In this document: positions 1 through 58,791 of the stretch, piece by piece
How positions within the stretch are numbered: the first letter of the stretch is position 1
Layout: each line of letters starts with the position of its first letter
DNA from: Bacteroidota bacterium
GTDB taxonomy: Bacteria; Bacteroidota; Ignavibacteria; UBA10030; SZUA-254
Reading direction: 5' to 3'
NCBI GenBank assembly: GCA_036522515.1
Contig: DATDFQ010000024.1
Span: 43,173-107,172, forward strand
Length of the DNA stretch: 64,000 bases
The notes under the pieces: model-generated
Databases searched by the model: none
Seen by the model: only the letters and a program-made list of their open reading frames with translations
What the model was told of the DNA's origin: nothing
Program-made: the position numbers and the translations under genes

Positions 1-22
1 CATTTGCAATGGCCAACAAACG

Positions 23-1297
23 ATGAATTACATTCCGAAATACTCCTTCACTCCGCCCTCCACCCTAAATTCACTTCTGTATGATAATGGAACAACGGTA
101 GGCTTGGGCCCGGGAACTAACTTCCACTGTCGTTTTCACATTAAGCCTTCTAATTCCGTTTGGGAGTGGGGGGGGTTGTTATTCAACACTGCGATTGAAA
201 CAGGGACTGACTATCAAGTTATCGGTGGAAATGGTGGTGCGGGGCTCCAATTGACAGGGACGAAGAATAATAATGGTTATCCCTCATCTCAAATCTCCCT
301 CGACGCGATGTATGGCAACATAATTTTTGGAATCGGCGTCGGTATTTCTGCACCGACGACTAAAATGACTGTCAATCAGTATGGTTTGACCATCGGGACT
401 TCAACGAACCCCACTGGATTGACAGTATTGGGAAATTCTGAACTCTGGGGCTGGTTGGCTATTCACTCGAGTGACCCCTTGTGGGGCATTCACGAAGCAC
501 ACTCCGGTTCGATGACCGGCACAACCTATGGCCTTTCTGTAGCCGAAATGTCAACATCATCGACTCCCAATATCACCCGGTACGGCGCCGAGATACAAGC
601 AACTGGTCCATGGAACGGCACTGGAGCGACAAATATCGGCTTGCACGTCAACGCGTCAGGGGGCACAATCAACTACGGAGCGATCATCGAAGGTGGAAAT
701 GTCGGGATCGGTACAACCTCTCCGACCGCTTTGCTGCATACGGTCGCTTCAGGATCACAATCCGCAAGTTACACCGGAAATTTACTCACAAATGTCGCCA
801 CATCCTCGGCAACGAATGCTGTAAAATATGGAGTCGAGATTCAATCCACAGGCACATGGAACGGCTCGGGGGCATCAAATATCGGCCTCCATGTCATGGC
901 CACAGGGGGAGCTAACAACTACGCCGCCAGATTTGACCAGGCCGTCGGAATTGGTGCCAACCCCTGTAGCACGGACATGCTAGCCGTCAACGGCCAGGTG
1001 CACGCGTCATCATACATCACCAACTCGACCTTCTGTGATTTTGTGTTTGATCAGGGCTACAAGCTGATGCCGCTGGAGGAAGTCGAACAGCACATCAACG
1101 CCGACAAGCACCTCCCGGGCATCCCTTCAGCAAGAGAGGTTGAGGAAAAGGGATTGAATCTCGGTGATATGGAAGTAAAGATGATGCAAAAGGTCGAGGA
1201 GTTGACCCTTTACGTTATCAACCAGCACAAAGAATTGAAGAGGCTTCAAAAAGAGAACGAGGCACTAAAGCTACGCGTTTCTTCTATCGGGAAATAA
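23..1297 (+). CDS. Gly/Thr/Asn-rich repeat protein (tail-fibre or surface-fibre like) with C-terminal intramolecular-chaperone domain of Peptidase_S74 type; reading frame is open to the window edge so the N-terminus may be truncated
   Basis: 424-aa ORF. Internal degenerate repeats (TGxWNGxGAxNIGLHV...). C-terminal ~80 aa (YKLMPLEEVEQHINADKHLPGIPSAREVEEKGLNLGDMEVKMMQKVEELTLYVINQHKELKRLQKENEALK) matches the endosialidase/tail-fibre chaperone domain pattern recalled from memory. No stop codon between position 2 and 23 in frame. Confidence 0.55.
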   Translation: MNYIPKYSFTPPSTLNSLLYDNGTTVGLGPGTNFHCRFHIKPSNSVWEWGGLLFNTAIETGTDYQVIGGNGGAGLQLTGTKNNNGYPSSQISLDAMYGNIIFGIGVGISAPTTKMTVNQYGLTIGTSTNPTGLTVLGNSELWGWLAIHSSDPLWGIHEAHSGSMTGTTYGLSVAEMSTSSTPNITRYGAEIQATGPWNGTGATNIGLHVNASGGTINYGAIIEGGNVGIGTTSPTALLHTVASGSQSASYTGNLLTNVATSSATNAVKYGVEIQSTGTWNGSGASNIGLHVMATGGANNYAARFDQAVGIGANPCSTDMLAVNGQVHASSYITNSTFCDFVFDQGYKLMPLEEVEQHINADKHLPGIPSAREVEEKGLNLGDMEVKMMQKVEELTLYVINQHKELKRLQKENEALKLRVSSIGK

Positions 1298-2759: not shown

Positions 2760-5697
2760 GGGGGAGGCCGGCCGGTAACGTGATAGGAACTGAAATTGAT
2801 ATGCGTGTTCCCGACTTGGGCTTGGATGAGATTTGTATTTTTCCCCCATAAAACCGTATGCGTTCGCGGATGTTCAGCAATCCAAACCCTCCTCCGTCAT
2901 GGATCCGTCCCACAGCGCCGGGGTCAAATCCGATCCCGTCGTCGGAAACTTCGATTTGGATGGAATCCTGGATCCGTCTTAACGAGATCTCGACACTCTT
3001 CGCAGAGGAGTGTTTGACGATGTTTGTGACGAGTTCGCGAACCGCATGGAACAGAAAGAGGCGCAGTTCGTTCGGGAGTGGTTTCTGTTGACCGTCATTC
3101 TCCACGTAAATGAGGAGATCGTGTTTCCGCTGCATTTCGTCCCCTAGCCAGGAAATCGCATCCTCAAGGCGCATATCGGCGAGCATGGGCGGACTCAGTT
3201 GCCGCGTGATGGATTGCGTATCTCTGATCGCCGAACTCAGATGCTCGTTAAGTTCGTCAACTGCCTTGGGGTCGAAGGTTTCCCGAAGGGCGCCGAGCTT
3301 GTTCTTGCAAAACGCGAGCGATTGTCCGATTGTCTCGTGCAGGTAGATTGCAAGTTGTTGGCGCTCCCTCTCCTCGGTGGTCGACAGGCTTGCGGTCAGC
3401 GCGCGGAGCGACTGCGTGTACTTTCTTTTGTTCACGTACTGGTTCAACGCCAGCACAACGATCACAAGGAATCCCGCTCCCGCCGGCAGGAGGAATGCCG
3501 CGCGCTCATAAAACGGCGGCTCGATTACGAAAGAAAGACTCTGTTCCCCTTCCGAGATGCCCCCGAAGAAATCCAAGCCCCGGATGTGGACCAGATGTGT
3601 TCCCGGGCTCAGACTATCGAGTGTCATATTGTCCCGGAGCGCCCAGTCGGTCCAGGGCTGATCATCCAAGCGGTAGGATGTCTTGATATCCTGCGTTCGC
3701 TGCTCTTCCCAGAAGGCAAACGCGTTCCAGCGAAGCAATGCGGACCGGCCGTCCACAATCGGGGGATAGGGATAGATCCGTACCTTGTGGCTTGCCCTGT
3801 CTGAAATATCCAACGCGTCGACGCCGCTCCCCTGCGTGCCCACGTAGACAAGGTTGTTCATGATGGTGACCGGCCATAACTGGATTTGAGCCAGTCCCGA
3901 TCGATCGTCGAACGACAGGAATGTCCCTTCCCTATAGCTTCCCAGCCCCTCTCCTGTGGCGATCCAGAGAGTCCCATCCGGACCTACAGCAAGATCCCAG
4001 ATTACATTCGACACCAGACCACTTTCAACCGTAAAATAGCGCAGACGCAGCGTGCTATCGACCCGGCAAAGCCCGTTATGACGGTCCCCGAACCAAACCG
4101 TGTTGGCGCTGTCGATGGCAAGGGTGAATACCTCGGGAAACTTCAACTCATCTTCCCTCGTCCAGTGTTTCCATGCGCCGTGATGCCACCGGCTGAGCCC
4201 TCCACCGGTGCCGAACCACAGGCTGCCGTCCGATCCCTCGGCAAACGAGTAGACCCGGCCGTTCAGCAATCCCTCCCGGACTCCCCAGGGTTCAAAACGC
4301 CCATCCTTGAGGACGTACGCACCCGGTGGTGTCGGATCGACGCCCGGCGCCCCCCTCGTCAATCCCAGAAACCACAAATTGCCTTCGCGGTCCTTGCTGA
4401 TTCTATGTATTCGAATCCCGCTCGAATCGGGAGTGATGTTCGCATGGTCCCATTTGTTCCCGTCCCAGCGGAAGGCGCCGCCCAGCGCGCTTCCGCTTGA
4501 AATCCAGATGTTTCCATCCCTGTCCTGAGCAAGTCCCGTAATCGCGTGAAGCCGTGTCGACCCGATCCGGTCGTAGAATTTCTCGCCCCCTCCGGCCTTA
4601 TACACCTTTACACCGTCGGAGGTCCCGAGCCAAAGGTCTCCGTTCTTCGCATTGAGTATTTCGCATATGACATTGCTCGCGGCGCGCGAGGAATCCTTCC
4701 AGCTTCTCCACCGCGTGGAAGATTTTTTGAAAAGATAAAGCCCTTCGGTGCTACAGATCCAGAGGTCCCCGTTCCCGGACGGCTGGAGGCTCAGTACGTT
4801 TCTCACCTGAAAGCTCAGATACTTCAGAGGGCTCCATTCTCCCTCCCTTCGCAGGAAGATTTCGCCTGAGATCGTCAATCCATATCTTTCACCATCGCTG
4901 CCGAAGACAAATTGCCTGAAGACATGCTCGTTGGAGGTTGATCCGGGCTGCGGGGTAGATTTTCCGCTCCATGTCCACAACTCTCCGAATCGATCGCTGT
5001 AATCGATGGAAGCCATGCCCGACCCGCCCGAGTCTTCATCGATGCCGCTGACCCAAAACCTTCCGGTGCGAGCGGGGATCGCCACCCTGAGGTTGTTCGA
5101 CTCCCAGCGGTATAACCCCGAGACTAGATTTACCCAAATCGTACCGTGCAGGGTACGGAATATGTTGACTGTCTTTCCCCGGGTAAGTTCTTGGTGTGGG
5201 AATTCCTGCAATACTCCGTCACGCAGGATAAATAGCGAGGAAAGCTCCTGGATCAGCAACGATCGCTCATCAATTTGAAGCACTGTCGTTACATGAGTCG
5301 GGCCTGCGATCATCCTGAAGCGGTGGTTGTTTCCGGAATACAGGGTTCCCCCGGTTGTAACGAGGACATCGCCGTCCTGGAGGGCGACCAAACCCGTGGC
5401 CGGAGATTGCGGGAGCCCCAGACTTTCGGGAACGGCCGTCCACCTGAACCCGTCATACCACGAGACGCCCTTCGGACCAGCCGCCCAGATCGTTCCGCCT
5501 CTCCCCTCCGCCACCGCGCTGACTTGATCGGCGGGAAGCCCGTTGAGGTGGGAAAATCGTACCAGCCTCCAGCTTTCGCTAAAATCCCCGTCCTGGGAGA
5601 TGGCGATGAGCGGAAGGCAGAATGGGGTGAGTGAAAGCTGGAATCGCAGAATCCAAAGAAAAGTTTTCAAGGGGCTTCTTCCAAAAAATCGGCGCAC
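2749..5697 (-). CDS. sensor histidine kinase with large periplasmic double beta-propeller/Y_Y_Y sensor, one TM segment, HisKA_3 and HATPase_c
   Basis: 982 aa. Repeated two-component-regulator propeller motifs (G.IW.GT..GL..YDG). TM helix FLLPAGAGFLVIVVLALNQYV. C-terminal ERERQQLAIYLHETIGQSL (HisKA_3) and ...IEVSDDGIGFD...GGFGLLNIRER (ATPase). Coupled to the NarL-type regulator downstream. Confidence 0.85.
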   Translation of the reverse strand: MRRFFGRSPLKTFLWILRFQLSLTPFCLPLIAISQDGDFSESWRLVRFSHLNGLPADQVSAVAEGRGGTIWAAGPKGVSWYDGFRWTAVPESLGLPQSPATGLVALQDGDVLVTTGGTLYSGNNHRFRMIAGPTHVTTVLQIDERSLLIQELSSLFILRDGVLQEFPHQELTRGKTVNIFRTLHGTIWVNLVSGLYRWESNNLRVAIPARTGRFWVSGIDEDSGGSGMASIDYSDRFGELWTWSGKSTPQPGSTSNEHVFRQFVFGSDGERYGLTISGEIFLRREGEWSPLKYLSFQVRNVLSLQPSGNGDLWICSTEGLYLFKKSSTRWRSWKDSSRAASNVICEILNAKNGDLWLGTSDGVKVYKAGGGEKFYDRIGSTRLHAITGLAQDRDGNIWISSGSALGGAFRWDGNKWDHANITPDSSGIRIHRISKDREGNLWFLGLTRGAPGVDPTPPGAYVLKDGRFEPWGVREGLLNGRVYSFAEGSDGSLWFGTGGGLSRWHHGAWKHWTREDELKFPEVFTLAIDSANTVWFGDRHNGLCRVDSTLRLRYFTVESGLVSNVIWDLAVGPDGTLWIATGEGLGSYREGTFLSFDDRSGLAQIQLWPVTIMNNLVYVGTQGSGVDALDISDRASHKVRIYPYPPIVDGRSALLRWNAFAFWEEQRTQDIKTSYRLDDQPWTDWALRDNMTLDSLSPGTHLVHIRGLDFFGGISEGEQSLSFVIEPPFYERAAFLLPAGAGFLVIVVLALNQYVNKRKYTQSLRALTASLSTTEERERQQLAIYLHETIGQSLAFCKNKLGALRETFDPKAVDELNEHLSSAIRDTQSITRQLSPPMLADMRLEDAISWLGDEMQRKHDLLIYVENDGQQKPLPNELRLFLFHAVRELVTNIVKHSSAKSVEISLRRIQDSIQIEVSDDGIGFDPGAVGRIHDGGGFGLLNIRERIRFYGGKIQISSKPKSGTRISISVPITLPAGLPHAK

Positions 5698-49732: not shown

Positions 49733-50032
49733 TTACCGTTTTGCGACTTTTTCTTCCTTCAGGATTTTTTTCGCGAAATAGAAGACGATCAGCGCGACAA
49801 TCAGAAAATCAAGGAGAGCCCCGAAGAAAGGCCCGAGCAGGAAGTGGAACGGGCCGACGTCGAGGGTCGCCTTTCTCCATTCCCCTCCCGGTATGAAGAA
49901 GGTGAGGATGGGCATGAGGATGCCGTCCACCGACGTACTCACGAGGGCATTGAGTTTTCCCCCGATGATGACGGCGATGGCCAGACCGATCACCCCATAC
50001 TCTTTCAGGAATTCTACGAATTCTTTCAGCAT
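49733..50032 (-). CDS. mscL: large-conductance mechanosensitive channel
   Basis: MLKEFVEFLKEYGVIGLAIAVIIGGKLNALVSTSVDGILMP...FLIVALIVFYFAKK matches the MscL TM1/TM2 pattern. Confidence 0.85.
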   Translation of the reverse strand: MLKEFVEFLKEYGVIGLAIAVIIGGKLNALVSTSVDGILMPILTFFIPGGEWRKATLDVGPFHFLLGPFFGALLDFLIVALIVFYFAKKILKEEKVAKR

Positions 50033-50116
50033 GACGGTTCCCTCCTATGGTTGATGCGACACATGGATCAGGCAGGGGTCAATATACCCTCCGGATCGGT
50101 GAAAGTCAAAAGGAAT

Positions 50117-50145
50117 TTGCATTCCACTGGCCCGCCTTGTATATT
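50117..50145 (+). promoter_or_regulatory. putative promoter of the thiamine-uptake operon (TTGCAT-17-TATATT)
   Basis: TTGCAT at 50117-50122 and TATATT at 50140-50145, placing +1 about 50152, immediately before riboswitch stem P1. Confidence 0.3.
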
Positions 50146-50153
50146 CCCATTGT

Positions 50154-50240
50154 CGTCCGTTAGGGGTGTCCCGCAAAAAAGGGACTGAGAACATACCCTG
50201 GAAACCTGATCTGGATCATGCCAGCGTAGGGAAACGGAAG
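50154..50240 (+). promoter_or_regulatory. TPP (thiamine pyrophosphate, THI-box) riboswitch
   Basis: gtccgttaGGGGTGtCCcgcaaaaaagggaCTGAGAacatACCCtgGAAACCTGATCTGGATCATGCCAGCGtAGGGAaacggaa contains all conserved THI-element blocks (GGGGUGCC, CUGAGA, ACCC, AACCUGAUCUGGAUAAUGCCAGCG, AGGGA) with P1 tccgtt/aacgga. Confidence 0.85.
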
Positions 50241-50252
50241 GGAAATTGCTCA

Positions 50253-50301
50253 GCGCCGTTTTTCCCTCCATTTTCCGGAGGGGAAAACGGCGTTGTCATT
50301 T
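50253..50301 (+). terminator. riboswitch expression-platform terminator (attenuator)
   Basis: gcgccgtttttccctcc-attttcc-ggaggggaaaacggcg is a perfect 16-bp stem followed by ttgtcattt, 20 nt before the TonB-receptor ATG. Confidence 0.55.
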
Positions 50302-50320
50302 AATCGGAAAGAACCCATCG

Positions 50321-52597
50321 ATGAAGTACCTCACACTTGTTTTGTCATTAGGAGCCCTTGCCCCGCCTCTCCCGGCGCAGGACACGCTTCTTGTGACCCG
50401 AGATTCCGTCTACTCATATCTCCCCGCAGTCATTGTGACCGCGACGCAGGCCCGGGAACGGGAGACTCCTGTGACATTCTCAACCTTGACGCAGGCTCAA
50501 CTGTCAGAACGCTATTCCGTGCAAGATATCCCCGTTCTCCTTTCAGATCTCCCTTCCATGACGTTCTATTCCGAAAACGGGAACGGGATCGGCTATAACT
50601 ACGTGAACCTCCGGGGATTCGACCAGCGCCGCCTCTCCGTGATGATCAACGGGGTGCCGCAGAACGACCCTGAGGATCATAATGTATATTGGATTGATTT
50701 CCCGGATCTCCTTGGAAGCACCGGTAGCGTGCAGGTGCAGCGCGGGGCCGGAAGCGCCTTCTACGGACCGCCGGCCATCGGCGGATCGATCAACCTGGTC
50801 ACGGATCCCTTCAACAGAAAGCCGGGGATCACGGTCGAGTCGGAACTCGGCTTCCAGGAGTTCTCGGACAGCACGACGTCTCTTCCGATCGCGACGCGCA
50901 AATACGCCGTGTCCGTGAATTCAGGACTCGTCGGGAAACAATACATGGTGTATGGACGGCTTGGAAGAATCCAAAGCGACGGGTACCGCACCAACTCGTG
51001 GGTGAACCTCGATTCCTATTTTCTCGGAGCCATCAGGATCGACAGGGAGATGACGACCCGCCTTGAGTTTTATGGCGGGCCACTGACCGACGGCCTCGCG
51101 TACACCGGCCTCCCGAAGTTCGTCAACGACAACCCCCGGCTTCGACGGCAGAATCTCGCCGATTGGGGGCTCGACTCGACCGGTTCGGGATACTCCTATG
51201 CGACGCAGAGAAGGCCGCAGGAAAGCGAGAGTTTTTCACAGCCCCACTATGAATTGATCCACGACTGGCGTCTCTCTCCCGGGACAACGCTCCATAACAC
51301 GCTCTTTTACTATACCGGGGACGGTTACTTCGACTACGACGCGTCGTGGGCCGACACATCGTTGCTTCGGATCGGATCATTGTACGGGTTTCCGACGGCC
51401 CAGAACCCGGCGAACGCCCTTGTCCGCGCGTTCGTGGGAAATAAGCAGTGGGGATGGCTTCCGAATATCGGGATCGATCATACTTCCGGGACATTGACCC
51501 TTGGGGCCGAGGTCCGCATTCATCGCTCCACACACTGGGGCAAGATCCAGTACGCGGAGGGCCTTCCGCCGAATTTCGACCCCGACTATCACTTTTATGA
51601 ATATAACGGAGAGAAGGACATCCTCTCGGTTTTCGGGCACGAGCTCTATCGGCCGCAGGAGAATCTCACGCTGATGTTCGATCTTCAGCTGGTCCGCAAC
51701 CGGTATGGAATCAGCAACGAAAAGTATCTGGGCGAAAACTTCAGCCTCCCCTACTTCTTCGCGAACCCGCGCGTCGGAGCAAATTACAATCTCAACCCTG
51801 AATGGAACGGATATCTGTCGCTCGCCTATACCTCGCGTGAACCGGTCTTGCGAAACCTCTACGCGGTAGAGGATTCCTATTTCGGGGCCACGCCCCAGTT
51901 CGAGGCCGACACGTCAGGCGGCACGGTGAGATATGATTTCACGAAGCCGCTCGCAAAGCCCGAGCGGTTGCTCGACATCGAAGCGGGAGCAGTGTACAGA
52001 GGGGCGAACGCGGAGTTCTCGGCCGATGTGTTCTGGATGGAGTTCAGCGATGAGCTTGTCAAAAGCGGCCAGGTGGACATCTTCGGCCAGCCCGTCACCG
52101 GCAATGCAGATCGGACGCGTCATATTGGGGTGGAGCTCGACGGAAGACTCTCAGCAGGCCCCATGTTCTCAATCAGCGGAAATCTTACGCTCTCTCACAA
52201 TCGGCTCATCCGGTACAGCGTGATCGACGACGCAGGAATCATCCAGCAGGGCGCGCGGGTCGATCTCGACGGCAATTCCATCGCGGGATTTCCCGACGTA
52301 CTCGGGAATCTCCGGGCCACCTTTAGGAGTGACGACGGGGAAGTCTCCTTTTCGGCAAAATACGTGGGGCCATTCTATACTGATAACTTCAAGATTGAGG
52401 ATCACAGAAATGACGCGTATACCCTCATCGACGCCGAAGCGCTCGATCGGATCGCCACCATAGGCGGGGTGGAGCTCTCTCTCCGATTCGAGATACACAA
52501 CGTGTTCAACAGATTCTTTTCCCTGAGCGGGGAAGGGAACGCCTTCTTCCCGGCAGCGGAACGAAGCTATCTCTGGGGGATGAAGGTCGATCTGTGA
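50321..52597 (+). CDS. TonB-dependent outer-membrane receptor (thiamine-regulated)
   Basis: Signal peptide MKYLTLVLSLGALAPPLPAQ. TonB-box-like DTLLVT. Plug domain (NYVNLRGFDQRRLSVMINGVPQNDPE...). C-terminal beta-barrel ending in an aromatic residue. Start at MKY (ATG 50321). Confidence 0.85.
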   Translation: MKYLTLVLSLGALAPPLPAQDTLLVTRDSVYSYLPAVIVTATQARERETPVTFSTLTQAQLSERYSVQDIPVLLSDLPSMTFYSENGNGIGYNYVNLRGFDQRRLSVMINGVPQNDPEDHNVYWIDFPDLLGSTGSVQVQRGAGSAFYGPPAIGGSINLVTDPFNRKPGITVESELGFQEFSDSTTSLPIATRKYAVSVNSGLVGKQYMVYGRLGRIQSDGYRTNSWVNLDSYFLGAIRIDREMTTRLEFYGGPLTDGLAYTGLPKFVNDNPRLRRQNLADWGLDSTGSGYSYATQRRPQESESFSQPHYELIHDWRLSPGTTLHNTLFYYTGDGYFDYDASWADTSLLRIGSLYGFPTAQNPANALVRAFVGNKQWGWLPNIGIDHTSGTLTLGAEVRIHRSTHWGKIQYAEGLPPNFDPDYHFYEYNGEKDILSVFGHELYRPQENLTLMFDLQLVRNRYGISNEKYLGENFSLPYFFANPRVGANYNLNPEWNGYLSLAYTSREPVLRNLYAVEDSYFGATPQFEADTSGGTVRYDFTKPLAKPERLLDIEAGAVYRGANAEFSADVFWMEFSDELVKSGQVDIFGQPVTGNADRTRHIGVELDGRLSAGPMFSISGNLTLSHNRLIRYSVIDDAGIIQQGARVDLDGNSIAGFPDVLGNLRATFRSDDGEVSFSAKYVGPFYTDNFKIEDHRNDAYTLIDAEALDRIATIGGVELSLRFEIHNVFNRFFSLSGEGNAFFPAAERSYLWGMKVDL

Positions 52598-53274
52598 CCC
52601 TCAGAAATCGTCCCACGAGAAAGCGCTACGCCCCGTCGGCTTTGCTCCACGCTCTGATTATCGCCAACGGCACCCTCCCTCCTGCCCCGATGGTCCGGCG
52701 GCTGCGCCAACGTGCAGACCTTGTCGTTTGCGCCGATGGCGGAGCAAACCGGGCGCGGAGCGCGGGGATAACGCCCGACATCATACTCGGCGATATGGAC
52801 TCACTTACCGCCGCGACGAAGCGCTTCTATCGAGGTGTTCCACTTTTTAGGATCCCCGATCAGGAGAGCACCGACCTGGAGAAGGCGATCCTCTTCTGTA
52901 TCACGCTGGGGACGGCTTCAGTCGATGTTCTGGGTGCGCTTGGAGATCGGATCGATCACATCACCGGAAGCCTGGGCTGCTTCAAAAGGTTTGGAGAAAG
53001 GATAGAGCTTCGCCTCATAGATGAGATCGGCGAGCTAACCCGCATCCGAAAGAGAGTGAGCTTGAAAACAAGAAAGGGGGAGAAAATTTCCCTCATTCCC
53101 GTGGACCGGTGTGCCGGCGTTACGACGAAGAATCTTAAATACCCGTTGAAGAACGCATTCCTGGAAACCGGCGTTCGCGAAGGAATCAGCAACGAGGCGA
53201 CCGGCCGATCGGCATCGGTTTCGGTTGCGAAAGGGACTCTGCTTCTGTTCAGGTTTTGGGATGAGAGCCGGTAG
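52594..53274 (+). CDS. thiN: thiamine pyrophosphokinase
   Basis: ALIIANGTLPP...ADLVVCADGGANRARSAGITPDIILGDMDS matches the TPK catalytic N-domain. 4-nt overlap with the receptor gene. Confidence 0.8.
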   Translation: MTLRNRPTRKRYAPSALLHALIIANGTLPPAPMVRRLRQRADLVVCADGGANRARSAGITPDIILGDMDSLTAATKRFYRGVPLFRIPDQESTDLEKAILFCITLGTASVDVLGALGDRIDHITGSLGCFKRFGERIELRLIDEIGELTRIRKRVSLKTRKGEKISLIPVDRCAGVTTKNLKYPLKNAFLETGVREGISNEATGRSASVSVAKGTLLLFRFWDESR

Positions 53275-53295
53275 TTTCGGGAAGGCTCGACCGGG

Positions 53296-54744
53296 ATGAT
53301 TCATCTCGCCCTTTCAGACGTCATCGTCATCCTCCTTTACTTCGGAGGCGTCCTGTTCGTCGGTTTTCGGTCCGCCCGGAGAACGGCGGATTCCGAGGAA
53401 GATTTCCTGCTGGCAGGCCGTTCACTCACCCTCCCCATCTTCGTGATGACGCTCGTTTCCACCTGGTACGGCGGCATTCTTGGCGTCGGAGAATTCTCCT
53501 ACCGGTACGGAGTGTCAAATTGGGTGGTTCAGGGGGTCCCCTACTACATCTTCGCAGCGATCTTTGCGTTTATCCTCGCGAAGAAAATCCGGGCGACAAA
53601 CCTCTTCTCGATCCCGGATAAACTTGCCGCCTCGTACGACCGGAAGACCGCCGTTCTCGGTTCGGTGCTGACTTTCGTTCTCATGACGCCGGCCCCCTAT
53701 ATCCTGATGCTCGCCGTATTCATCCAGATGCTGTTCGGGTGGAGCCTGGTGGTGAGCCTCCTTGTCACCGCTATTGTCGCGGTTTCGTACCTTTTCGCCG
53801 GGGGATTCCGGGCGGATGTTGAAACCGACGTCCTCGAATTCTTCCTGATGTTCATCGGCTTCGCGGTCATCCTTCCATATTGCGGCATCCGGTTCGGCGG
53901 CTGGGAGTACCTCCAGTCGCACCTCCCGCCGTTACACCTGACGTGGCACGGAGGAAACTCGATCCAGTACATCCTGGTCTGGTTTTTCATCGCGCTCTGG
54001 ACGCTTGTCGACCCGGCGTTCCACCAGCGGTGCTATGCCGCAAAAAGCGGGGATGTCGCCCAAAGAGGCATTCTCATATCAATCGCGTTCTGGTTTCTGT
54101 TCGATTTCATGACAGCAACGGCGGGACTCTACGCCAGGGCCTCACTCCCCGCTCTGCAGGAACCGATGATGGCGTATCCGATGCTCGCCGAAGAGGTCCT
54201 CCCCCCGATCGCAAAAGGACTCTTCTACGTGGGGATGCTCGCGACGATCATGTCGACGCTGAATACGCTCGCGTTCGTGTCCGCGCAGACGCTGGGGAGA
54301 GATATCCTGTTACGAATGGGATTCGGCGGGGGGATGAGAAACGGTGCCGAACCCGTGGGCCTCGAAGGGTCGAGTCTCTCGAAGCGATACACGCAGATGG
54401 GCCTCATCCTGGCATTCGTCGTTTCGGTGGCCATCGCACTCGCGATACCGAGCGTGATCAAGATCTGGTATACGATCGGCACGGTTATCATCCCGGGTCT
54501 CCTGGTGCCCCTGATCGCGAGCTATTTCGAATCGTTGAAGATATCCGCCCGGTATGCGTTTCTTGCGATGGCGGCAGGATGGCTCACGTCGCTCGTGTGG
54601 CTGATTGCCGGGTTGGGTGAGAGTTCGGGAAAATATCCTCTCGGAATCGAGCCGATGTATCCCGGGTTGGCATTGAGCGTTGGGATATGGGGGGTGGGAA
54701 GGGCGAGCATGGTAAGGACGGCCGGGCGAAAGAACGCGGCCTGA
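53296..54744 (+). CDS. sodium:solute symporter (SSS) family transporter; candidate thiamine/precursor permease (ThiV-like) by context
   Basis: 482 aa with about 13 TM helices. ...FLLAGRSLTLPIFVMTLVSTWYGGILGVGEFSY... SSS signature. Last codons run into the repeat block. Confidence 0.75.
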   Translation: MIHLALSDVIVILLYFGGVLFVGFRSARRTADSEEDFLLAGRSLTLPIFVMTLVSTWYGGILGVGEFSYRYGVSNWVVQGVPYYIFAAIFAFILAKKIRATNLFSIPDKLAASYDRKTAVLGSVLTFVLMTPAPYILMLAVFIQMLFGWSLVVSLLVTAIVAVSYLFAGGFRADVETDVLEFFLMFIGFAVILPYCGIRFGGWEYLQSHLPPLHLTWHGGNSIQYILVWFFIALWTLVDPAFHQRCYAAKSGDVAQRGILISIAFWFLFDFMTATAGLYARASLPALQEPMMAYPMLAEEVLPPIAKGLFYVGMLATIMSTLNTLAFVSAQTLGRDILLRMGFGGGMRNGAEPVGLEGSSLSKRYTQMGLILAFVVSVAIALAIPSVIKIWYTIGTVIIPGLLVPLIASYFESLKISARYAFLAMAAGWLTSLVWLIAGLGESSGKYPLGIEPMYPGLALSVGIWGVGRASMVRTAGRKNAA

Positions 54745-54860
54745 AGGCCGCGCCTACCGACTATCAAGGTTTCGGCGCGGAGCGCCGATGTATGCGTTCC
54801 CACGCAGAGCGTGGGAACGAGAAGGCCTGAAGGCCGCGGCTACCTGCCGCGGCCCCAGCC
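54735..54860. repeat. A - GC-hairpin - B - A composite repeat
   Basis: gcggcctgaaggccgcgcctaccga; ggcgcggagcgccg; tgcgttcccacgcagagcgtgggaacgag; ggcctgaaggccgcggctacc. Confidence 0.8.
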
Positions 54861-54875: not shown

Positions 54876-55478
54876 TTACTTTTTCGTATCCTTCTTCGCG
54901 TCCTTCTCTGCAGCCTGCTCTGCCGCGGTCCAGGGAGGGACCACTTTGTTCATCCTGGCATACGCAATCGATTGACCCAGGTGTTCATGCAGGTGAAGCG
55001 CGGCTTCGAAGATCACCCCCCGGTAGGTCGCGTCATCGCCGAACATCTTCGTCGCCTTGTCAAGATCCGAATCGGGCGTCTGGAGCACGGCGGTGCGAAG
55101 ATGGTTAAAGGACACCTTGAGAGCCTGTATCACCTTCGCCTTTTCCGTCACATTCTTCTCCAGGTTCTTTTCCAGTCCTTCCGGCTTCTTGACACCGATG
55201 AACGTCGGAAAGAGATAATTGGCACCGGCGATATGCATATAGACTTCGCTGACCGACCGGACACCCTCCATCGGCCTCCAGGAGTAGGAATTCTCGGGCA
55301 TGGCCCCGGCCAGTTCTTCGATCTTCTTCTCCACATCGTTTAACTGGCCAATGAACTCTCCCCGGAATCCTGTGGGGGCGGGAGGTTTTTCGATCGGATC
55401 TTTCTGCTGCGCCCGGACCGGCTGCATGAGCAGGAAGGCGACCGTGAGGACGGCAATCAGAGCGTGGATTGTTTTCAT
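54876..55478 (-). CDS. secreted DinB-superfamily (DinB_2-like) four-helix-bundle protein
   Basis: Signal peptide MKTIHALIAVLTVAFLLMQPVRAQ. H..xxxxxxxH..H pattern (YMHIAGANYLF...ALHLHEHLGQSIAY) typical of DinB/YfiT metal-binding helices. Confidence 0.6.
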   Translation of the reverse strand: MKTIHALIAVLTVAFLLMQPVRAQQKDPIEKPPAPTGFRGEFIGQLNDVEKKIEELAGAMPENSYSWRPMEGVRSVSEVYMHIAGANYLFPTFIGVKKPEGLEKNLEKNVTEKAKVIQALKVSFNHLRTAVLQTPDSDLDKATKMFGDDATYRGVIFEAALHLHEHLGQSIAYARMNKVVPPWTAAEQAAEKDAKKDTKK

Positions 55479-55565
55479 GTTGATTCTCCTTTGGTTGATG
55501 TAATGTAGTGAACTAACAATTAGCATGACGGGATAATGAATAGCCTCGGCCTATTACCTCTGCTC

Positions 55566-55689: not shown

Positions 55690-58600
55690 TTATTTTTTGG
55701 GCAACAAGACATCGTACACATTCGGATCGTCCGGTTTCGGTTTGCCGCCCCCCACCCACTCGCCGGCGACGGCCTCGACACTCCTGAAGTCCCCGATCCC
55801 GGCGCCGCCGTGATCGTCCTGCGCGCCGATCAAGACCGCGTAACGCCACTTCGCCTGCGGGGAGCCCAGGATTCTCTGGGGGATGCCAAATTGAATCGTC
55901 TTCGTTCCGGCATTACCGAGCGGATCCCTTTCGTCACCGGGGGCGGGCATATACTCCGCGAGGACCTTCCCCTTCGAATCCTCGATCCGGATTCCTCCCC
56001 CCACATAGATGATCTCCTCGAAACCAAAATCCTTTGAGAATGTATATTTCGAGTTCATTCCGACTTTCGTTTGGCCCGAGCCGGGCTTCCCGTCCTTGTC
56101 GATGGCGATCGCCGCGTAGGTCAGCTGGAATCCGTACTCGGGGTGCCATCCCGGATCGGAGAGCTCTCTGAACTGCAATCGAAAATAGAGGTTGCTTTTG
56201 TCGGCAGAAACCGAGAAATGAACGATATCCAGGCTTCCCGGTTTCAAGCTGGGAGTCTTTGGATAGGTATACGTGCCCGGCCCGGTATCGTCACCCTCCG
56301 GATCTGCGGCGTCATACAGGTTCACCGCCGACGGGTCTTTCGGCTTGATGTCAGCGAGGGTGAGGAGCGGGTAGGGCGGCGGACGAAGCGCCTTGAGCCA
56401 CGGCCTCACAAGCGGAGAGGCGAGCTTGAGCCCCGCGAACCGGCGGGGATCGGGCACGGAAATCGAATCTTTCTCCGGGAGGCGCGACGTGCCGCTCCCA
56501 TCCGCCTGCGTGACGCCGTTCTTATCGATCTTCAGCTGAATCGACCCTCCCGGCGGAAGCTGGGTCCGGATCCCCCGCAGCAGCAGGTCGCTCATGCCGG
56601 TTGAGCCGGCGGGGAGATCGTTCCGGACTGTCGCAAATTCAACGGGGGGATACACGACGACATTCAGATTCGCCGCCTTTGGCTGCGAGGAAAGGGTGAT
56701 GCTGAACGAGCCGGGCTCCGCTTCGTATCCGACCGCGACCGTGCTTGATCCGATCACCGCATCGAAATCGGCGTGCGGGATCGCCGACGGGAGCCGGGGT
56801 TTCAGGGTGAGGGTCGAGCCGGGCGCGTCAGCCTCCACGCCAAGGTACGCCTGGTAAAAACTGCGGACGAACTCGGCGAGACTCCATGCCTGGGAATATG
56901 CCCCCGAGAGGCTCGGTTCGGTCTGACCGGGGCGCGGAGCGGCGTCCAGCAACTCGGAGAGGGTGCCCACGGCACCGCGATCGAGCAGCTGATGCGACAT
57001 ATTCCCGGTCACCTCGAACGCGGTGTTCGACAACCCATACGATGCGGCAAGATCGATCCACCGGCCCGCGAGCCAGGGCCACACGATTCCGTTATGGTAT
57101 GCTTCATCCGGCACATAGAACGGCGGATAGTGGTGGTACGGATGAAAATCTTCGTCCTCCTGCGACAGAGTCGCGACGCCGTGGGAATAGACGAGTTCTC
57201 GCGTCACGTTCTCAAATACGGTCCTCCGGACGGTCTCGTCGCGGACGAGGCCGATTGCGAAGAGCTGGTTCGGGCGCATCCGGAGGTCCGGCGCTCCGCC
57301 CGGGCGAAGGTGGTCGTAGACCTCGCCTCCCCCTGCCCTGAGAAACTGCCTGTTGAAATTCGCGGCGAGCGTGTCGCTGATCCGGGACCACCGGTCCGCC
57401 GACTCGCGTTCCGGTCCGCCAGCGCCTGCCATCCTCGCAAGCTCCGCCCCTACCCGAAGCTCGTCATACCAGAGCGCCTGGACGTCGTCGGCGCGATTTC
57501 CCCGGGGGGACCATCCTCCGCGCGGGCCGACCGCATCCATCCAGGTTTCCGCATCCCCGTGCGTCAAAAAGTAGTTTCGGTCGGCGTGGTATTTCAGAGT
57601 CCCTTCGATCGACCGGCTCACAACGCGGTACATCTCCTTGGCGAACGTTGTGTCACCCGAATAGCGGATATACTCGCCGAGAGCCCGGACGAATCGGGGC
57701 GTGCCGTCGGCGCTGTTGTAGGAAATCGAGTTAGTGGTGACGGTATTGGGAATCCGTCCGTATGTCGGGCTGGTCGGAAGTGTATCCTGCCATTCCGCGA
57801 ACGACCGAAGGATCGATTTCGCATCGGCAAAATTACCTGTGACAAGCGTGGCCCCGGGGAGAGAGATGAACGAGTCTCTCCCCCAGTAATCATCGAACCA
57901 GGGGAGCCCGGCGAAGATGCCTTTCTTCGTTTGATTCATGATCAGAGCGTCGAGAGAGACTCTCGCCCACGCCAACGCTTTGTCGAGAGGTCCGTTGCCG
58001 GTCCGAAGATAGGACCGGTTCAGGAGTTGCTCGATCCTTTTCTTGCGCCCGGAAACCGGCTCTTTCGTCTTGTAATTCCCGACGATGGAGGAGGCGAGGT
58101 CCGCGGCCGCCTCGGCGGAATCTCCGGCGGCGATCACGGCGGCAAATCCGGTGCTCCTGAGGCCGGAGCGAAGCGCCGCGGGCGAAAAATTGCGCCCGTA
58201 TTCCTTCCCCTCGTAAATCGAGAGCGCGAATTCGGAAGCGGGAAGAATCGAGACCGCAATCCATCCGGGATAGCGCTCCGCCGGAGTCGGAGCGAGATGG
58301 CCGTTCCGGCCTATCATGAGACCGCCGTTCAGGGTCTTGAGGGTGAAATCATCCGCGCTGTGAAGATCGCTGAAGATCGGCCTGACCGCGATGTGATCGC
58401 CCCTGACGCTGTCGATCTCGATCCAGATCGCGTTGACGAAATCGAGAAGCGTGACCGTTTCGCGCACCCCGTTGGCGTATTCCCGGACAATCTGATGGGG
58501 ATAGACGACCGCCCGAACGATGTCCGAGCGGCGAAGCTCCACGCCGTCGATCTCGACGGAATAGTCCTCCATGATTTCCCTCGACATGACGCGCCAGCCC

Positions 58601-58791
58601 TGCCATGCGGAACGGTGGGAGGCGTTCGTTTCGGTATAAAACACACCTGCTTCCTTATTCGTATATGCCACCTCCCGTGAAGCCCCTTTCACCTCGATGC
58701 CGAGTTCTTGCAGGGTCATTGGGGTTCGTTTGGGGGGTTGCTGTCCGTACGCAAGGAGCGGGAGACAGAGACACAAAACCAGGAATTTCAT
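55690..58791 (-). CDS. secreted amylo-alpha-1,6-glucosidase-like protein (GDE_N + GDE_C six-hairpin, GH133-like) with an additional about 330-aa C-terminal domain
   Basis: Signal peptide MKFLVLCLCLPLLAYGQ. ...GLPWFDDYWGRDSFISLPG...HGDAETWMDA...DDVQALWYDEL...NGIVWPWLAGRWI are hallmark GDE_C segments. The antisense ORF 56773..58680 is an artefact. Confidence 0.7.
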   Translation of the reverse strand: MKFLVLCLCLPLLAYGQQPPKRTPMTLQELGIEVKGASREVAYTNKEAGVFYTETNASHRSAWQGWRVMSREIMEDYSVEIDGVELRRSDIVRAVVYPHQIVREYANGVRETVTLLDFVNAIWIEIDSVRGDHIAVRPIFSDLHSADDFTLKTLNGGLMIGRNGHLAPTPAERYPGWIAVSILPASEFALSIYEGKEYGRNFSPAALRSGLRSTGFAAVIAAGDSAEAAADLASSIVGNYKTKEPVSGRKKRIEQLLNRSYLRTGNGPLDKALAWARVSLDALIMNQTKKGIFAGLPWFDDYWGRDSFISLPGATLVTGNFADAKSILRSFAEWQDTLPTSPTYGRIPNTVTTNSISYNSADGTPRFVRALGEYIRYSGDTTFAKEMYRVVSRSIEGTLKYHADRNYFLTHGDAETWMDAVGPRGGWSPRGNRADDVQALWYDELRVGAELARMAGAGGPERESADRWSRISDTLAANFNRQFLRAGGGEVYDHLRPGGAPDLRMRPNQLFAIGLVRDETVRRTVFENVTRELVYSHGVATLSQEDEDFHPYHHYPPFYVPDEAYHNGIVWPWLAGRWIDLAASYGLSNTAFEVTGNMSHQLLDRGAVGTLSELLDAAPRPGQTEPSLSGAYSQAWSLAEFVRSFYQAYLGVEADAPGSTLTLKPRLPSAIPHADFDAVIGSSTVAVGYEAEPGSFSITLSSQPKAANLNVVVYPPVEFATVRNDLPAGSTGMSDLLLRGIRTQLPPGGSIQLKIDKNGVTQADGSGTSRLPEKDSISVPDPRRFAGLKLASPLVRPWLKALRPPPYPLLTLADIKPKDPSAVNLYDAADPEGDDTGPGTYTYPKTPSLKPGSLDIVHFSVSADKSNLYFRLQFRELSDPGWHPEYGFQLTYAAIAIDKDGKPGSGQTKVGMNSKYTFSKDFGFEEIIYVGGGIRIEDSKGKVLAEYMPAPGDERDPLGNAGTKTIQFGIPQRILGSPQAKWRYAVLIGAQDDHGGAGIGDFRSVEAVAGEWVGGGKPKPDDPNVYDVLLPKK

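Follow-up and report, generated by a model that had tools for sequence, protein, structure and literature searches.

A thiamine pyrophosphate riboswitch heads an operon pairing a TonB-dependent receptor and thiamine pyrophosphokinase with a candidate thiamine permease of the sodium:solute symporter family

Introduction

How do Ignavibacteria and their relatives bring thiamine (vitamin B1) across the inner membrane without the transporter PnuT? The question is raised by a stretch of 64,000 nucleotides from contig DATDFQ010000024.1 (positions 43,173 to 107,172; hereafter 'the window'), in which a thiamine pyrophosphate (TPP) riboswitch precedes genes for a TonB-dependent outer-membrane receptor, a thiamine pyrophosphokinase (TPK) and a permease of the sodium:solute symporter (SSS) family. 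The reading favoured here, and probably the correct one, is that these genes form a TPP-repressed thiamine capture operon, in which the permease would act as a Na+-coupled importer of intact thiamine, TPK would trap the vitamin as TPP, and expression would be shut off by termination of transcription.

Many waters and sediments contain little thiamine, and most of the microbes living in them rely on its uptake. Surveys of vitamin B1 uptake depend on a short list of known transporters, and the permease subfamily considered here bears generic database names only. In gut Bacteroidetes, OMthi, pnuT and tnr3 are mostly carried as one operon, usually with the TPP riboswitch retained, and in Bacteroides thetaiotaomicron mutation of OMthi and of pnuT raises the thiamine requirement (PMC5613172). 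PnuT is described as acting by facilitated diffusion with metabolic trapping by TPK (PMC5749112). A comparison with this receptor-PnuT-TPK operon had already been drawn in a first-pass annotation of the window made from the sequence by eye, and the published account of the Bacteroidetes operon agrees with it (PMC5613172).

Results

The operon and its gene identities

The three genes of the operon (Table 1) were identified by their domains, and the receptor-TPK-SSS composition first proposed for the locus was upheld. For the receptor, the Pfam scores of the Plug and of the barrel both exceeded their cut-offs, and the specific models of NCBIfam all scored below theirs. The TPK passed the equivalog model TIGR01378 with 154.2 bits against a cut-off of 76.4 and carries both the catalytic domain (PF04263, 93 bits) and the B1-binding domain (PF04265, 44 bits) of the enzyme; its GTG start codon overlaps the TGA stop codon of the receptor gene by 4 nucleotides (GTGA), as had been noted. 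The permease matched PF00474 with 98.1 bits against a gathering score of 22.8. The neighbouring mscL gene is divergent and the neighbouring dinB-like gene is convergent, and the operon unit is therefore exactly three genes. Within the operon, Pfam gave no domains other than Plug, barrel, TPK and SSF, so that a PnuT-type (Pnu-family) gene was not found there, and no thiM, thiE or thiL was found within the window.

Table 1. Positions of the operon, its control elements and its neighbours in the window, and of paired riboswitches in three related loci.
Feature	Position	Strand	Evidence
Sigma-70-type promoter (-35 TTGCAT 50117-50122, 17-nucleotide spacer, -10 TATATT 50140-50145)	50117-50145	+	Conserved boxes
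TPP (THI-box) riboswitch aptamer	50152-50249	+	Rfam RF00059
Expression platform: putative terminator hairpin and U-rich tail	50251-50307	+	Minimum-free-energy fold, conservation
TonB-dependent outer-membrane receptor	50321-52597	+	PF07715 Plug 64 bits, PF00593 barrel 93.5 bits
Thiamine pyrophosphokinase (ThiN/Tnr3 type)	52594-53274	+	TIGR01378, PF04263, PF04265
SSS-family (SLC5-type) permease, 482 amino acids	53296-54744	+	PF00474
MscL, divergent neighbour	49733-50032	-	
DinB-like gene, convergent neighbour	54876-55526	-	
Back-to-back riboswitches, locus L096	3396-3497; 4767-4869	-; +	
Back-to-back riboswitches, locus L098	4550-4651; 4767-4869	-; +	
Back-to-back riboswitches, locus L100	590-691; 805-907	-; +	

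Conservation in close relatives

Homologues of the permease number in the thousands, and the best 120 are all at least 65% identical to it, come from Ignavibacteria or Bacteroidota metagenome-assembled genomes (MAGs) and bear generic names only. Relatives are encoded in at least 586 genomes, counting one genome per GTDB species, and the best 80 of these loci (56-79% identity, Ignavibacteria and relatives) were taken as the close-relative set. Searches with tblastn showed that the receptor-TPK-SSS order is kept almost everywhere in the 80 loci, and a covariance model (R1) built from 38 aptamers of these Ignavibacteria loci detected a TPP riboswitch on the plus strand before the receptor in 65 of them. 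The SSS gene is thus co-conserved with TPK and with riboswitches in related genomes, as the first-pass annotation had expected. Among the 15 loci that gave no riboswitch, 12 are cases where the contig ends too near the gene; L046 and L079 have just 1.2-2.0 kb of upstream sequence, with no receptor in it, and L075 is a TPK-SSS pair with neither receptor nor riboswitch within 8 kb. The receptor gene is the first gene 3' of the riboswitch in the window and in at least 64 related loci, and in 64 related loci it sits between riboswitch and TPK. Four loci (L021, L033, L041 and L042) carry a riboswitch, a different receptor (34% identity) and the SSS gene, without a TPK. The same operon was also present, in both cases with an RF00059 match, in Calditrichaceae (L087) and at a Kapabacteria-type locus (L090). 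The receptor-TPK-SSS arrangement is therefore standard across Ignavibacteria and several neighbouring phyla, and not peculiar to the genome of the window. In the locus of an Ignavibacterium album MAG (L073), a gene for an S-adenosylmethionine-dependent methyltransferase (4773-5522) lies between the receptor and a thiL-thiE-TPK-SSS series, inside the riboswitch-controlled operon.

The riboswitch, its expression platform and the promoter

The aptamer was the sole Rfam match at the gathering threshold in the whole window. It scored 74.0 bits against a threshold of 54.3 (E 1e-12) and covered model positions 1-105 of 105, in accord with the complete THI-box aptamer that had been placed by eye at 50154-50240. 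In an alignment of 66 homologous aptamers, 97.2% of the cells in the helices were paired and compensatory changes occurred in 7 of the 16 pairs, figures that lean towards the paired result since the alignment was fitted to the model. The covariation values observed were reached by 0 of 500 shuffles, and pairing fell to 31.5-60.1% when the partners were slid by one to three columns.

The minimum-free-energy fold of 50145-50335 holds the aptamer as well as a hairpin of 19 pairs at 50251-50295 (CAGCGCCGUUUUUCCCUCC...GGAGGGGAAAACGGCGUUG), with an energy of -34.3 kcal/mol. A 'perfect 16-bp terminator hairpin' had been annotated at 50253-50301; the hairpin core is indeed present, and since it includes one G-U pair the word 'perfect' was slightly generous. 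The 3' arm of the hairpin repeats the 3' strand of helix P1 of the aptamer (GGGAAACGG), and the 5' arm is therefore able to pair with either. To judge from the two arms, this is the usual design of a terminator/antiterminator switch. Conservation of the hairpin was assessed in 65 leaders, a number that includes the window here and for the promoter below. A hairpin of -14 kcal/mol or lower lies directly 3' of the aptamer in 63 of the 65, and 54 of those 63 also have at least five T in the next nine nucleotides. The arms read CCGUU...AAYGG in 46 of the 65 leaders. A clean run of six to nine U follows the hairpin in many relatives, and the tail of the window stands at the weak end of this range.

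The annotated TTGCAT-17-TATATT promoter ends 8 nucleotides before the start of the R1 match at 50154. By single-sequence scan it was indistinguishable from chance, with four promoter-like sites against 2.2 expected. A strict -35/-10 pair, defined as TTG[AC][ACT][AT]-16..18-TA[TA][AC][AT]T, was found in 48 of the 65 homologous leaders against 0.4 expected from shuffles, and the promoter is accepted because of this conservation, the single-sequence scan being insufficient by itself. The spacing between promoter and aptamer falls into two classes, of 5-10 or 28-39 nucleotides, with the window in the former. In 29 of the 65 leaders, all of the long-spacing class, a conserved (A)GTTCTTT element is placed between the -10 box and the aptamer; in L051, L069, L071, L028 and L052, among others, it is found 30-45 nucleotides 5' of the aptamer. 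The Ignavibacteria-type leaders (window 50081-50145; L001-L080) have classical TTGACA/TATAAT-like -35 and -10 boxes spaced by 16-18 nucleotides, unlike the -33/-7 promoter type of Bacteroidia. A TTGACT-17-TATATT pair on the minus strand of the window (50109-50081) points towards the divergent mscL gene.

The permease belongs to a distinct subfamily

Reference SSS sequences for placing the permease came from PMC11452348 (File S2). Among characterised proteins, the nearest in sequence was Escherichia coli PanF (29% identity over 333 amino acids, 86 bits); the scores were 54 bits for OpuE, 42 for SAR11_0811, 31 for PutP and 20-25 for algal and fungal SSSP/SSSQ. Membership in PanF (TIGR02119, 86.3 bits against a cut-off of 328) and in PutP (TIGR02121, 40.2 bits against 515.5) was rejected, and an algal SSSF gave no similarity (E 1.6). 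A profile-free search of 1.84 billion cluster representatives returned a permease subfamily of 296 clusters at 50% identity (E<=1e-30). The 105 full-length representatives found in the best 150 all fall into one neighbour-joining clade, without PanF, PutP, OpuE or SAR11 ThiV, so that neither the equivalog scores nor the trees place the permease with pantothenate or proline carriers, which is what the first-pass annotation had anticipated.

The same annotation had called the permease 'ThiV-like', and as a statement of family this did not survive. The ThiV of Rodionov 2002 is equated with the SSSP clade, which contains SAR11_0811 (PMC4260697), and Kazanov 2007 describes Rodionov's thiV as a panF homologue. 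Membership of the permease in ThiV/SSSP was rejected: it scored 42 bits to SAR11_0811, against 111-152 bits between SAR11_0811 and SSSP/SSSQ, and lay outside that clade in both neighbour-joining trees. Three residues are given as the signature of SSSP: SiaT-78 is Tyr, SiaT-139 is acidic, and SiaT-254 is Phe with His or a polar residue next to it on the C-terminal side (PMC11452348). Only the first of the three is present in the permease subfamily, as a Tyr in transmembrane helix 2 (Y84). At SiaT-139 it has Tyr (Y135), where ThiV/SSSP is acidic, and at SiaT-254 it has Val or Ile followed by Asp or Asn, in place of Phe-His, a comparison that depends on the alignment, as an F-[HY] pair lies a few residues downstream of the SiaT-254 position. 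Because the subfamily is separate from ThiV/SSSP, PanF and PutP, 'ThiV-like' holds by analogy only; on this sequence evidence the permease resembles ThiV in its likely role and is not a member of the ThiV family. The annotation's further proposal, that the SSS protein is a predicted importer related to thiamine, is upheld. Elusimicrobium lies outside the human-gut genome set of Rodionov 2019, in which the label 'ThiV' is used.

Structure and possible ion coupling of the permease

An AlphaFold model of the permease (pLDDT 86.2, pTM 0.86, from a 55-sequence alignment) has the SLC5 fold. Its top matches in the PDB were all SLC5/SSS members, the best being human CHT1, SGLT2, NIS, vSGLT and SiaT with template modelling (TM) scores of 0.6-0.76, and of about 0.7 for CHT1, SGLT2 and vSGLT. 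CHT1 (SLC5A7) is the best solved-structure match both by fold (9bfk, 9bfi and 9bfj, TM about 0.68-0.70) and by sequence, where a CHT-type protein led the list (9rws, E 3e-13), though it is only 16-18% identical to the permease and SGLT2, NIS and vSGLT score almost equally. Choline and thiamine are both quaternary cations that bear a hydroxyethyl group. Since the margin of CHT1 over SGLT2, NIS and vSGLT is negligible, recognition of a choline-like cation is offered as an idea and nothing further.

The residue pair S320/T321 of the permease aligns with S340/T341 in core transmembrane helix 8 of PutP, a Ser-Thr pair that forms part of the Na2 site in PutP and is likewise established for vSGLT and SiaT. 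Ser-Thr or Ser-Ser occupies this position in 25 of 26 aligned family members, and because these Na2-site residues are conserved, Na+ coupling of the permease is plausible. The motif in transmembrane helix 1 is an aromatic TWYGG in the subfamily, against SDMSG in PutP and ATYIS in PanF.

Thiamine linkage across the subfamily

The deeper branches of the subfamily were sampled by contig look-ups and by a metagenome scan seeded with the basal clade, giving 167 annotated loci. For the distant loci, weak riboswitch matches were checked and empty loci were rescanned with Rfam, which detected four plus-strand riboswitches that the Ignavibacteria-trained model R1 had missed. The genomic context was thiamine-linked in 133 of the 167 loci, with contexts of this kind in all three main branches of the subfamily tree; TPK adjoins the permease gene in 104, and a same-strand riboswitch lies upstream in 91.

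The arrangements were diverse. The full series of riboswitch, receptor, TPK and SSS was found in 64 loci, and three further loci show receptor, TPK and SSS on a contig that is cut upstream. TPK followed by SSS accounted for 20 loci, and SSS followed by TPK, often with overlapping coordinates, for 14 loci from gut and rumen samples; the relatives of the human-gut example of the latter are Elusimicrobiaceae. A riboswitch stood directly before SSS, with no gene between, in 15 loci and in four more found by Rfam, which also confirmed 13 that were rescanned. The Chlamydiales single-cell genome L082, whose permease is 34% identical to that of the window, has this layout. Eight loci have the SSS gene and a riboswitch-controlled receptor in divergent orientation, and three of these have a second riboswitch on the SSS strand. 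Riboswitch, receptor and SSS were found together in five loci, and riboswitch, TPK and SSS in three (L088, L094 and L095).

Several of these loci have features of their own. Marine metagenome contigs carry TPP riboswitches placed back to back and facing outward, one serving a TonB-dependent receptor and the other the SSS gene (Table 1). In L088 (5402-8410) the gene next to the riboswitch encodes a protein with a prepilin-type N_methyl domain (PF07963) and precedes TPK and SSS, the PF07963 protein occupying the slot that a TonB-dependent receptor has in other lineages. In L089 (6263-8968) the TPK-SSS pair is followed by a gene with a CYTH domain (PF01928), the domain family that includes thiamine triphosphatase; no riboswitch reached the Rfam threshold in this locus. 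In L094 an adenosylcobalamin (AdoCbl; B12) riboswitch (875-1001, minus strand; 52.9 bits, threshold 50) is 3 kb away from the unit of TPP riboswitch, TPK and SSS. About 700 nucleotides upstream of the TPK-SSS pair in L101 there is a match to Archaea_SRP RNA (770-1044; 113 bits against a threshold of 96.5), and the subfamily may on this account extend into Archaea. Loci L084 (7001-8918) and L085 (7001-8919) represent a sister clade with 36-44% identity to the window permease, in which one cluster has 88 members and no thiamine genes lie nearby.

Discussion

A probable thiamine capture operon and rival readings

The most likely interpretation of these data is the following sequence of events. 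Transcription would start at the conserved sigma-70-type promoter, a few bases 5' of the aptamer. At high TPP, the TPP-bound aptamer would lock the P1 3' strand, the hairpin at 50251-50295 would form and transcription would stop before the first gene; at low TPP, the 3' strand of the aptamer would pair with the 5' arm of the hairpin and allow read-through. The TonB-dependent receptor would then take thiamine across the outer membrane and the SSS permease would take it across the inner membrane, probably together with Na+. Conversion by TPK would turn thiamine into TPP in one step, which would both trap the vitamin and supply the cofactor. An ion-coupled carrier of this kind would let the cell concentrate thiamine at the very low levels found in waters and sediments. 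We infer from the sequences that control works by termination, that receptor and permease both have thiamine as their substrate, and that the permease is coupled to Na+. TPK (EC 2.7.6.2) acts on intact thiamine, converting it directly to TPP, and intact thiamine is favoured as the substrate mainly because TPK persistently pairs with the permease, in either order and across phyla.

A number of observations weigh against this interpretation. On the side of control, the tail after the hairpin in the window (UCAUUUAAU) has five U in nine and is a weak U-tract, and the hairpin was not called by a generic terminator scan. The antiterminator fold alone, at -14 kcal/mol, is no more stable than shuffled sequence (z -0.66), and with energetics this weak the proposed switching mechanism draws on arm design and on conservation. 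On the side of substrate, the loci in which a riboswitch stands directly before SSS, at least 19 from unrelated lineages, have no TPK nearby. The riboswitch-controlled operon contains thiM-thiE-thiL in L020 and thiL-thiE in L073. No thiamine link was seen in 18 of the 167 loci, six of which (L081, L083, L093, L126, L129 and L134) were also negative in the Rfam riboswitch scan; L081 and L083 are distant members with unrelated gene contexts. In L084 and L085 a gene for a CDP-alcohol phosphatidyltransferase (PF01066) comes after the SSS gene and overlaps it in coordinates, a pairing that suggests that an alcohol used in lipid head groups, choline or inositol for example, is imported. As there are branches without a thiamine context, specificity is not uniform across the subfamily. 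The subfamily is, moreover, known from genes and genomic context alone.

It could be that the permease imports a precursor or breakdown product of thiamine, namely hydroxymethylpyrimidine (HMP), the thiazole HET or formylaminopyrimidine, from which the cell would rebuild the vitamin. This is judged unlikely for the permease of the window. HMP is held to be the cargo of ThiV/SSSP, the second SSS clade associated with TPP riboswitches (PMC11452348), and given the thi genes in L020 and L073 and the riboswitch-SSS loci without TPK, a precursor is a possible substrate for some members. Set against this are the 104 loci that pair the permease with TPK, in both orders and often overlapping, and the need of TPK for intact thiamine. 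Genes for thiE or thiL were found in only two of 170 loci and thiM in only one, and two of the three ThiV/SSSP signature residues are missing from the subfamily.

A second possibility keeps the operon and the substrate as proposed and has the riboswitch act mainly on translation or on mRNA stability. It makes up a small part of the confidence placed in the capture-operon interpretation and adds nothing to it, and it is rather doubtful. The weak U-tract of the window and the silence of the terminator scan speak in its favour. The mode of action of TPP riboswitches in Bacteroidetes is uncertain (PMC5613172), and according to a preprint those of Bacteroides regulate transcription or translation (10.1101/867226). 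Yet the hairpin ends 25 nucleotides before the start codon and leaves both the GGAAAG box and the ATG uncovered, the same hairpin is followed by a long U run in relatives, and the copying of the P1 3' strand in the 3' arm is typical of terminator/antiterminator switches.

It is highly improbable that the permease has a substrate unconnected with thiamine, such as pantothenate, proline or choline, and merely lies at the end of a thiamine operon, for although PanF is its nearest characterised relative, choline transporters are its nearest solved structures, and some branches, among them the small clade paired with CDP-alcohol phosphatidyltransferase, are without a thiamine context, the permease falls far under the equivalog cut-offs of PanF (86 bits, cut-off 328) and of PutP (40 bits, cut-off 515), its 105 full-length relatives form a clade without PanF, PutP or OpuE, a TPP riboswitch stands directly ahead of SSS in unrelated lineages, and the linkage to TPK persists through changes of gene order and of phylum.

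Comparison with known systems

The operon is most readily compared with the OMthi (Omr1)-PnuT-Tnr3/TPK system of Bacteroides (BT2390, BT2396-BT2397), with which it shares a TPP riboswitch, a TonB-dependent receptor, a TPK, the logic of capture, import and trapping and, in the wide sense of Bacteroidota, a broad lineage. By analogy, the receptor would be the functional counterpart of Omr1/OMthi, and the SSS permease occupies the place that PnuT has in Bacteroides. The systems differ in that the inner-membrane step of the window is assigned to an SSS/SLC5-type permease of 482 amino acids, whereas Bacteroides has the small facilitator PnuT, and in gene order, which is receptor-TPK-permease in the window and receptor-PnuT-TPK in Bacteroides. 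PnuT depends on trapping alone, whereas coupling to ions could allow a carrier to build up thiamine against a gradient. A replacement of PnuT is in principle unsurprising, as non-homologous proteins often take over from one another in vitamin transport.

The ThiV/SSSP proteins (Methylobacillus flagellatus ThiV, SAR11_0811 and algal SSSP/SSSQ) share with the permease the PF00474 domain, a frequent TPP riboswitch and a predicted role as carriers of thiamine or of a thiamine moiety. They are reported beside thiG, thiE, thiM, thiD and tenA and are thought to carry HMP, in contrast to the permease subfamily, which lies beside TPK. The association with riboswitches that is common to both is a likeness in function and not evidence of membership. 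PanF is likewise a vitamin carrier with the SSS fold and keeps the Ser-Thr pair of the Na2 site; it differs from the permease in forming a separate clade, and the genomic context of the permease is one of thiamine, not pantothenate.

Riboswitch-controlled thiamine capture operons are already known, as are SSS carriers tied to thiamine. A description of the receptor-TPK-SSS operon or of the SSS-TPK pairing was not found in the full-text open-access literature, a scope outside which Rodionov 2002 lies, and no account seems to have been given of this group of carriers, of its breadth or of its partnership with TPK. We lean, if only slightly, towards the wider proposition that the subfamily is a second SSS origin of a vitamin B1 carrier, independent of ThiV/SSSP and serving intact thiamine together with TPK. 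It would then be the main inner-membrane importer in Ignavibacteria, Kapabacteria, Calditrichota, Zixibacteria, gut Elusimicrobia, some Chlamydiae and many marine lineages, and possibly in some Archaea. If this is true, surveys of B1 limited to ThiBPQ, ThiT, PnuT, ThiV and similar transporters would miss the uptake capacity of these organisms, and gene catalogues for vitamin B1 would gain a new named carrier. It would also explain how Ignavibacteria and their relatives take thiamine across the inner membrane, and would provide a second, independent SLC5-fold protein adapted to a thiamine-type ligand, useful for comparing how cationic vitamins are recognised.

Other features of the window

GC-rich palindromes lie just 3' of the SSS stop codon (54735-54850). 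One of them, GCGGCCTGAAGGCCGC, overlaps the stop codon and has a second copy at ~54824-54842, and a hairpin with a 9-bp stem, GTTCCCACG...CGTGGGAAC, is found at 54797-54819. None of the palindromes has a U-tract; they may be elements of the repetitive extragenic palindromic (REP) type or a terminator common to the convergent genes. Further downstream, on the minus strand (55690-58791), the window encodes a protein of 1033 amino acids with a glycogen-debranching GDE_C domain and a C-terminal glucodextranase SLH-like binding module.

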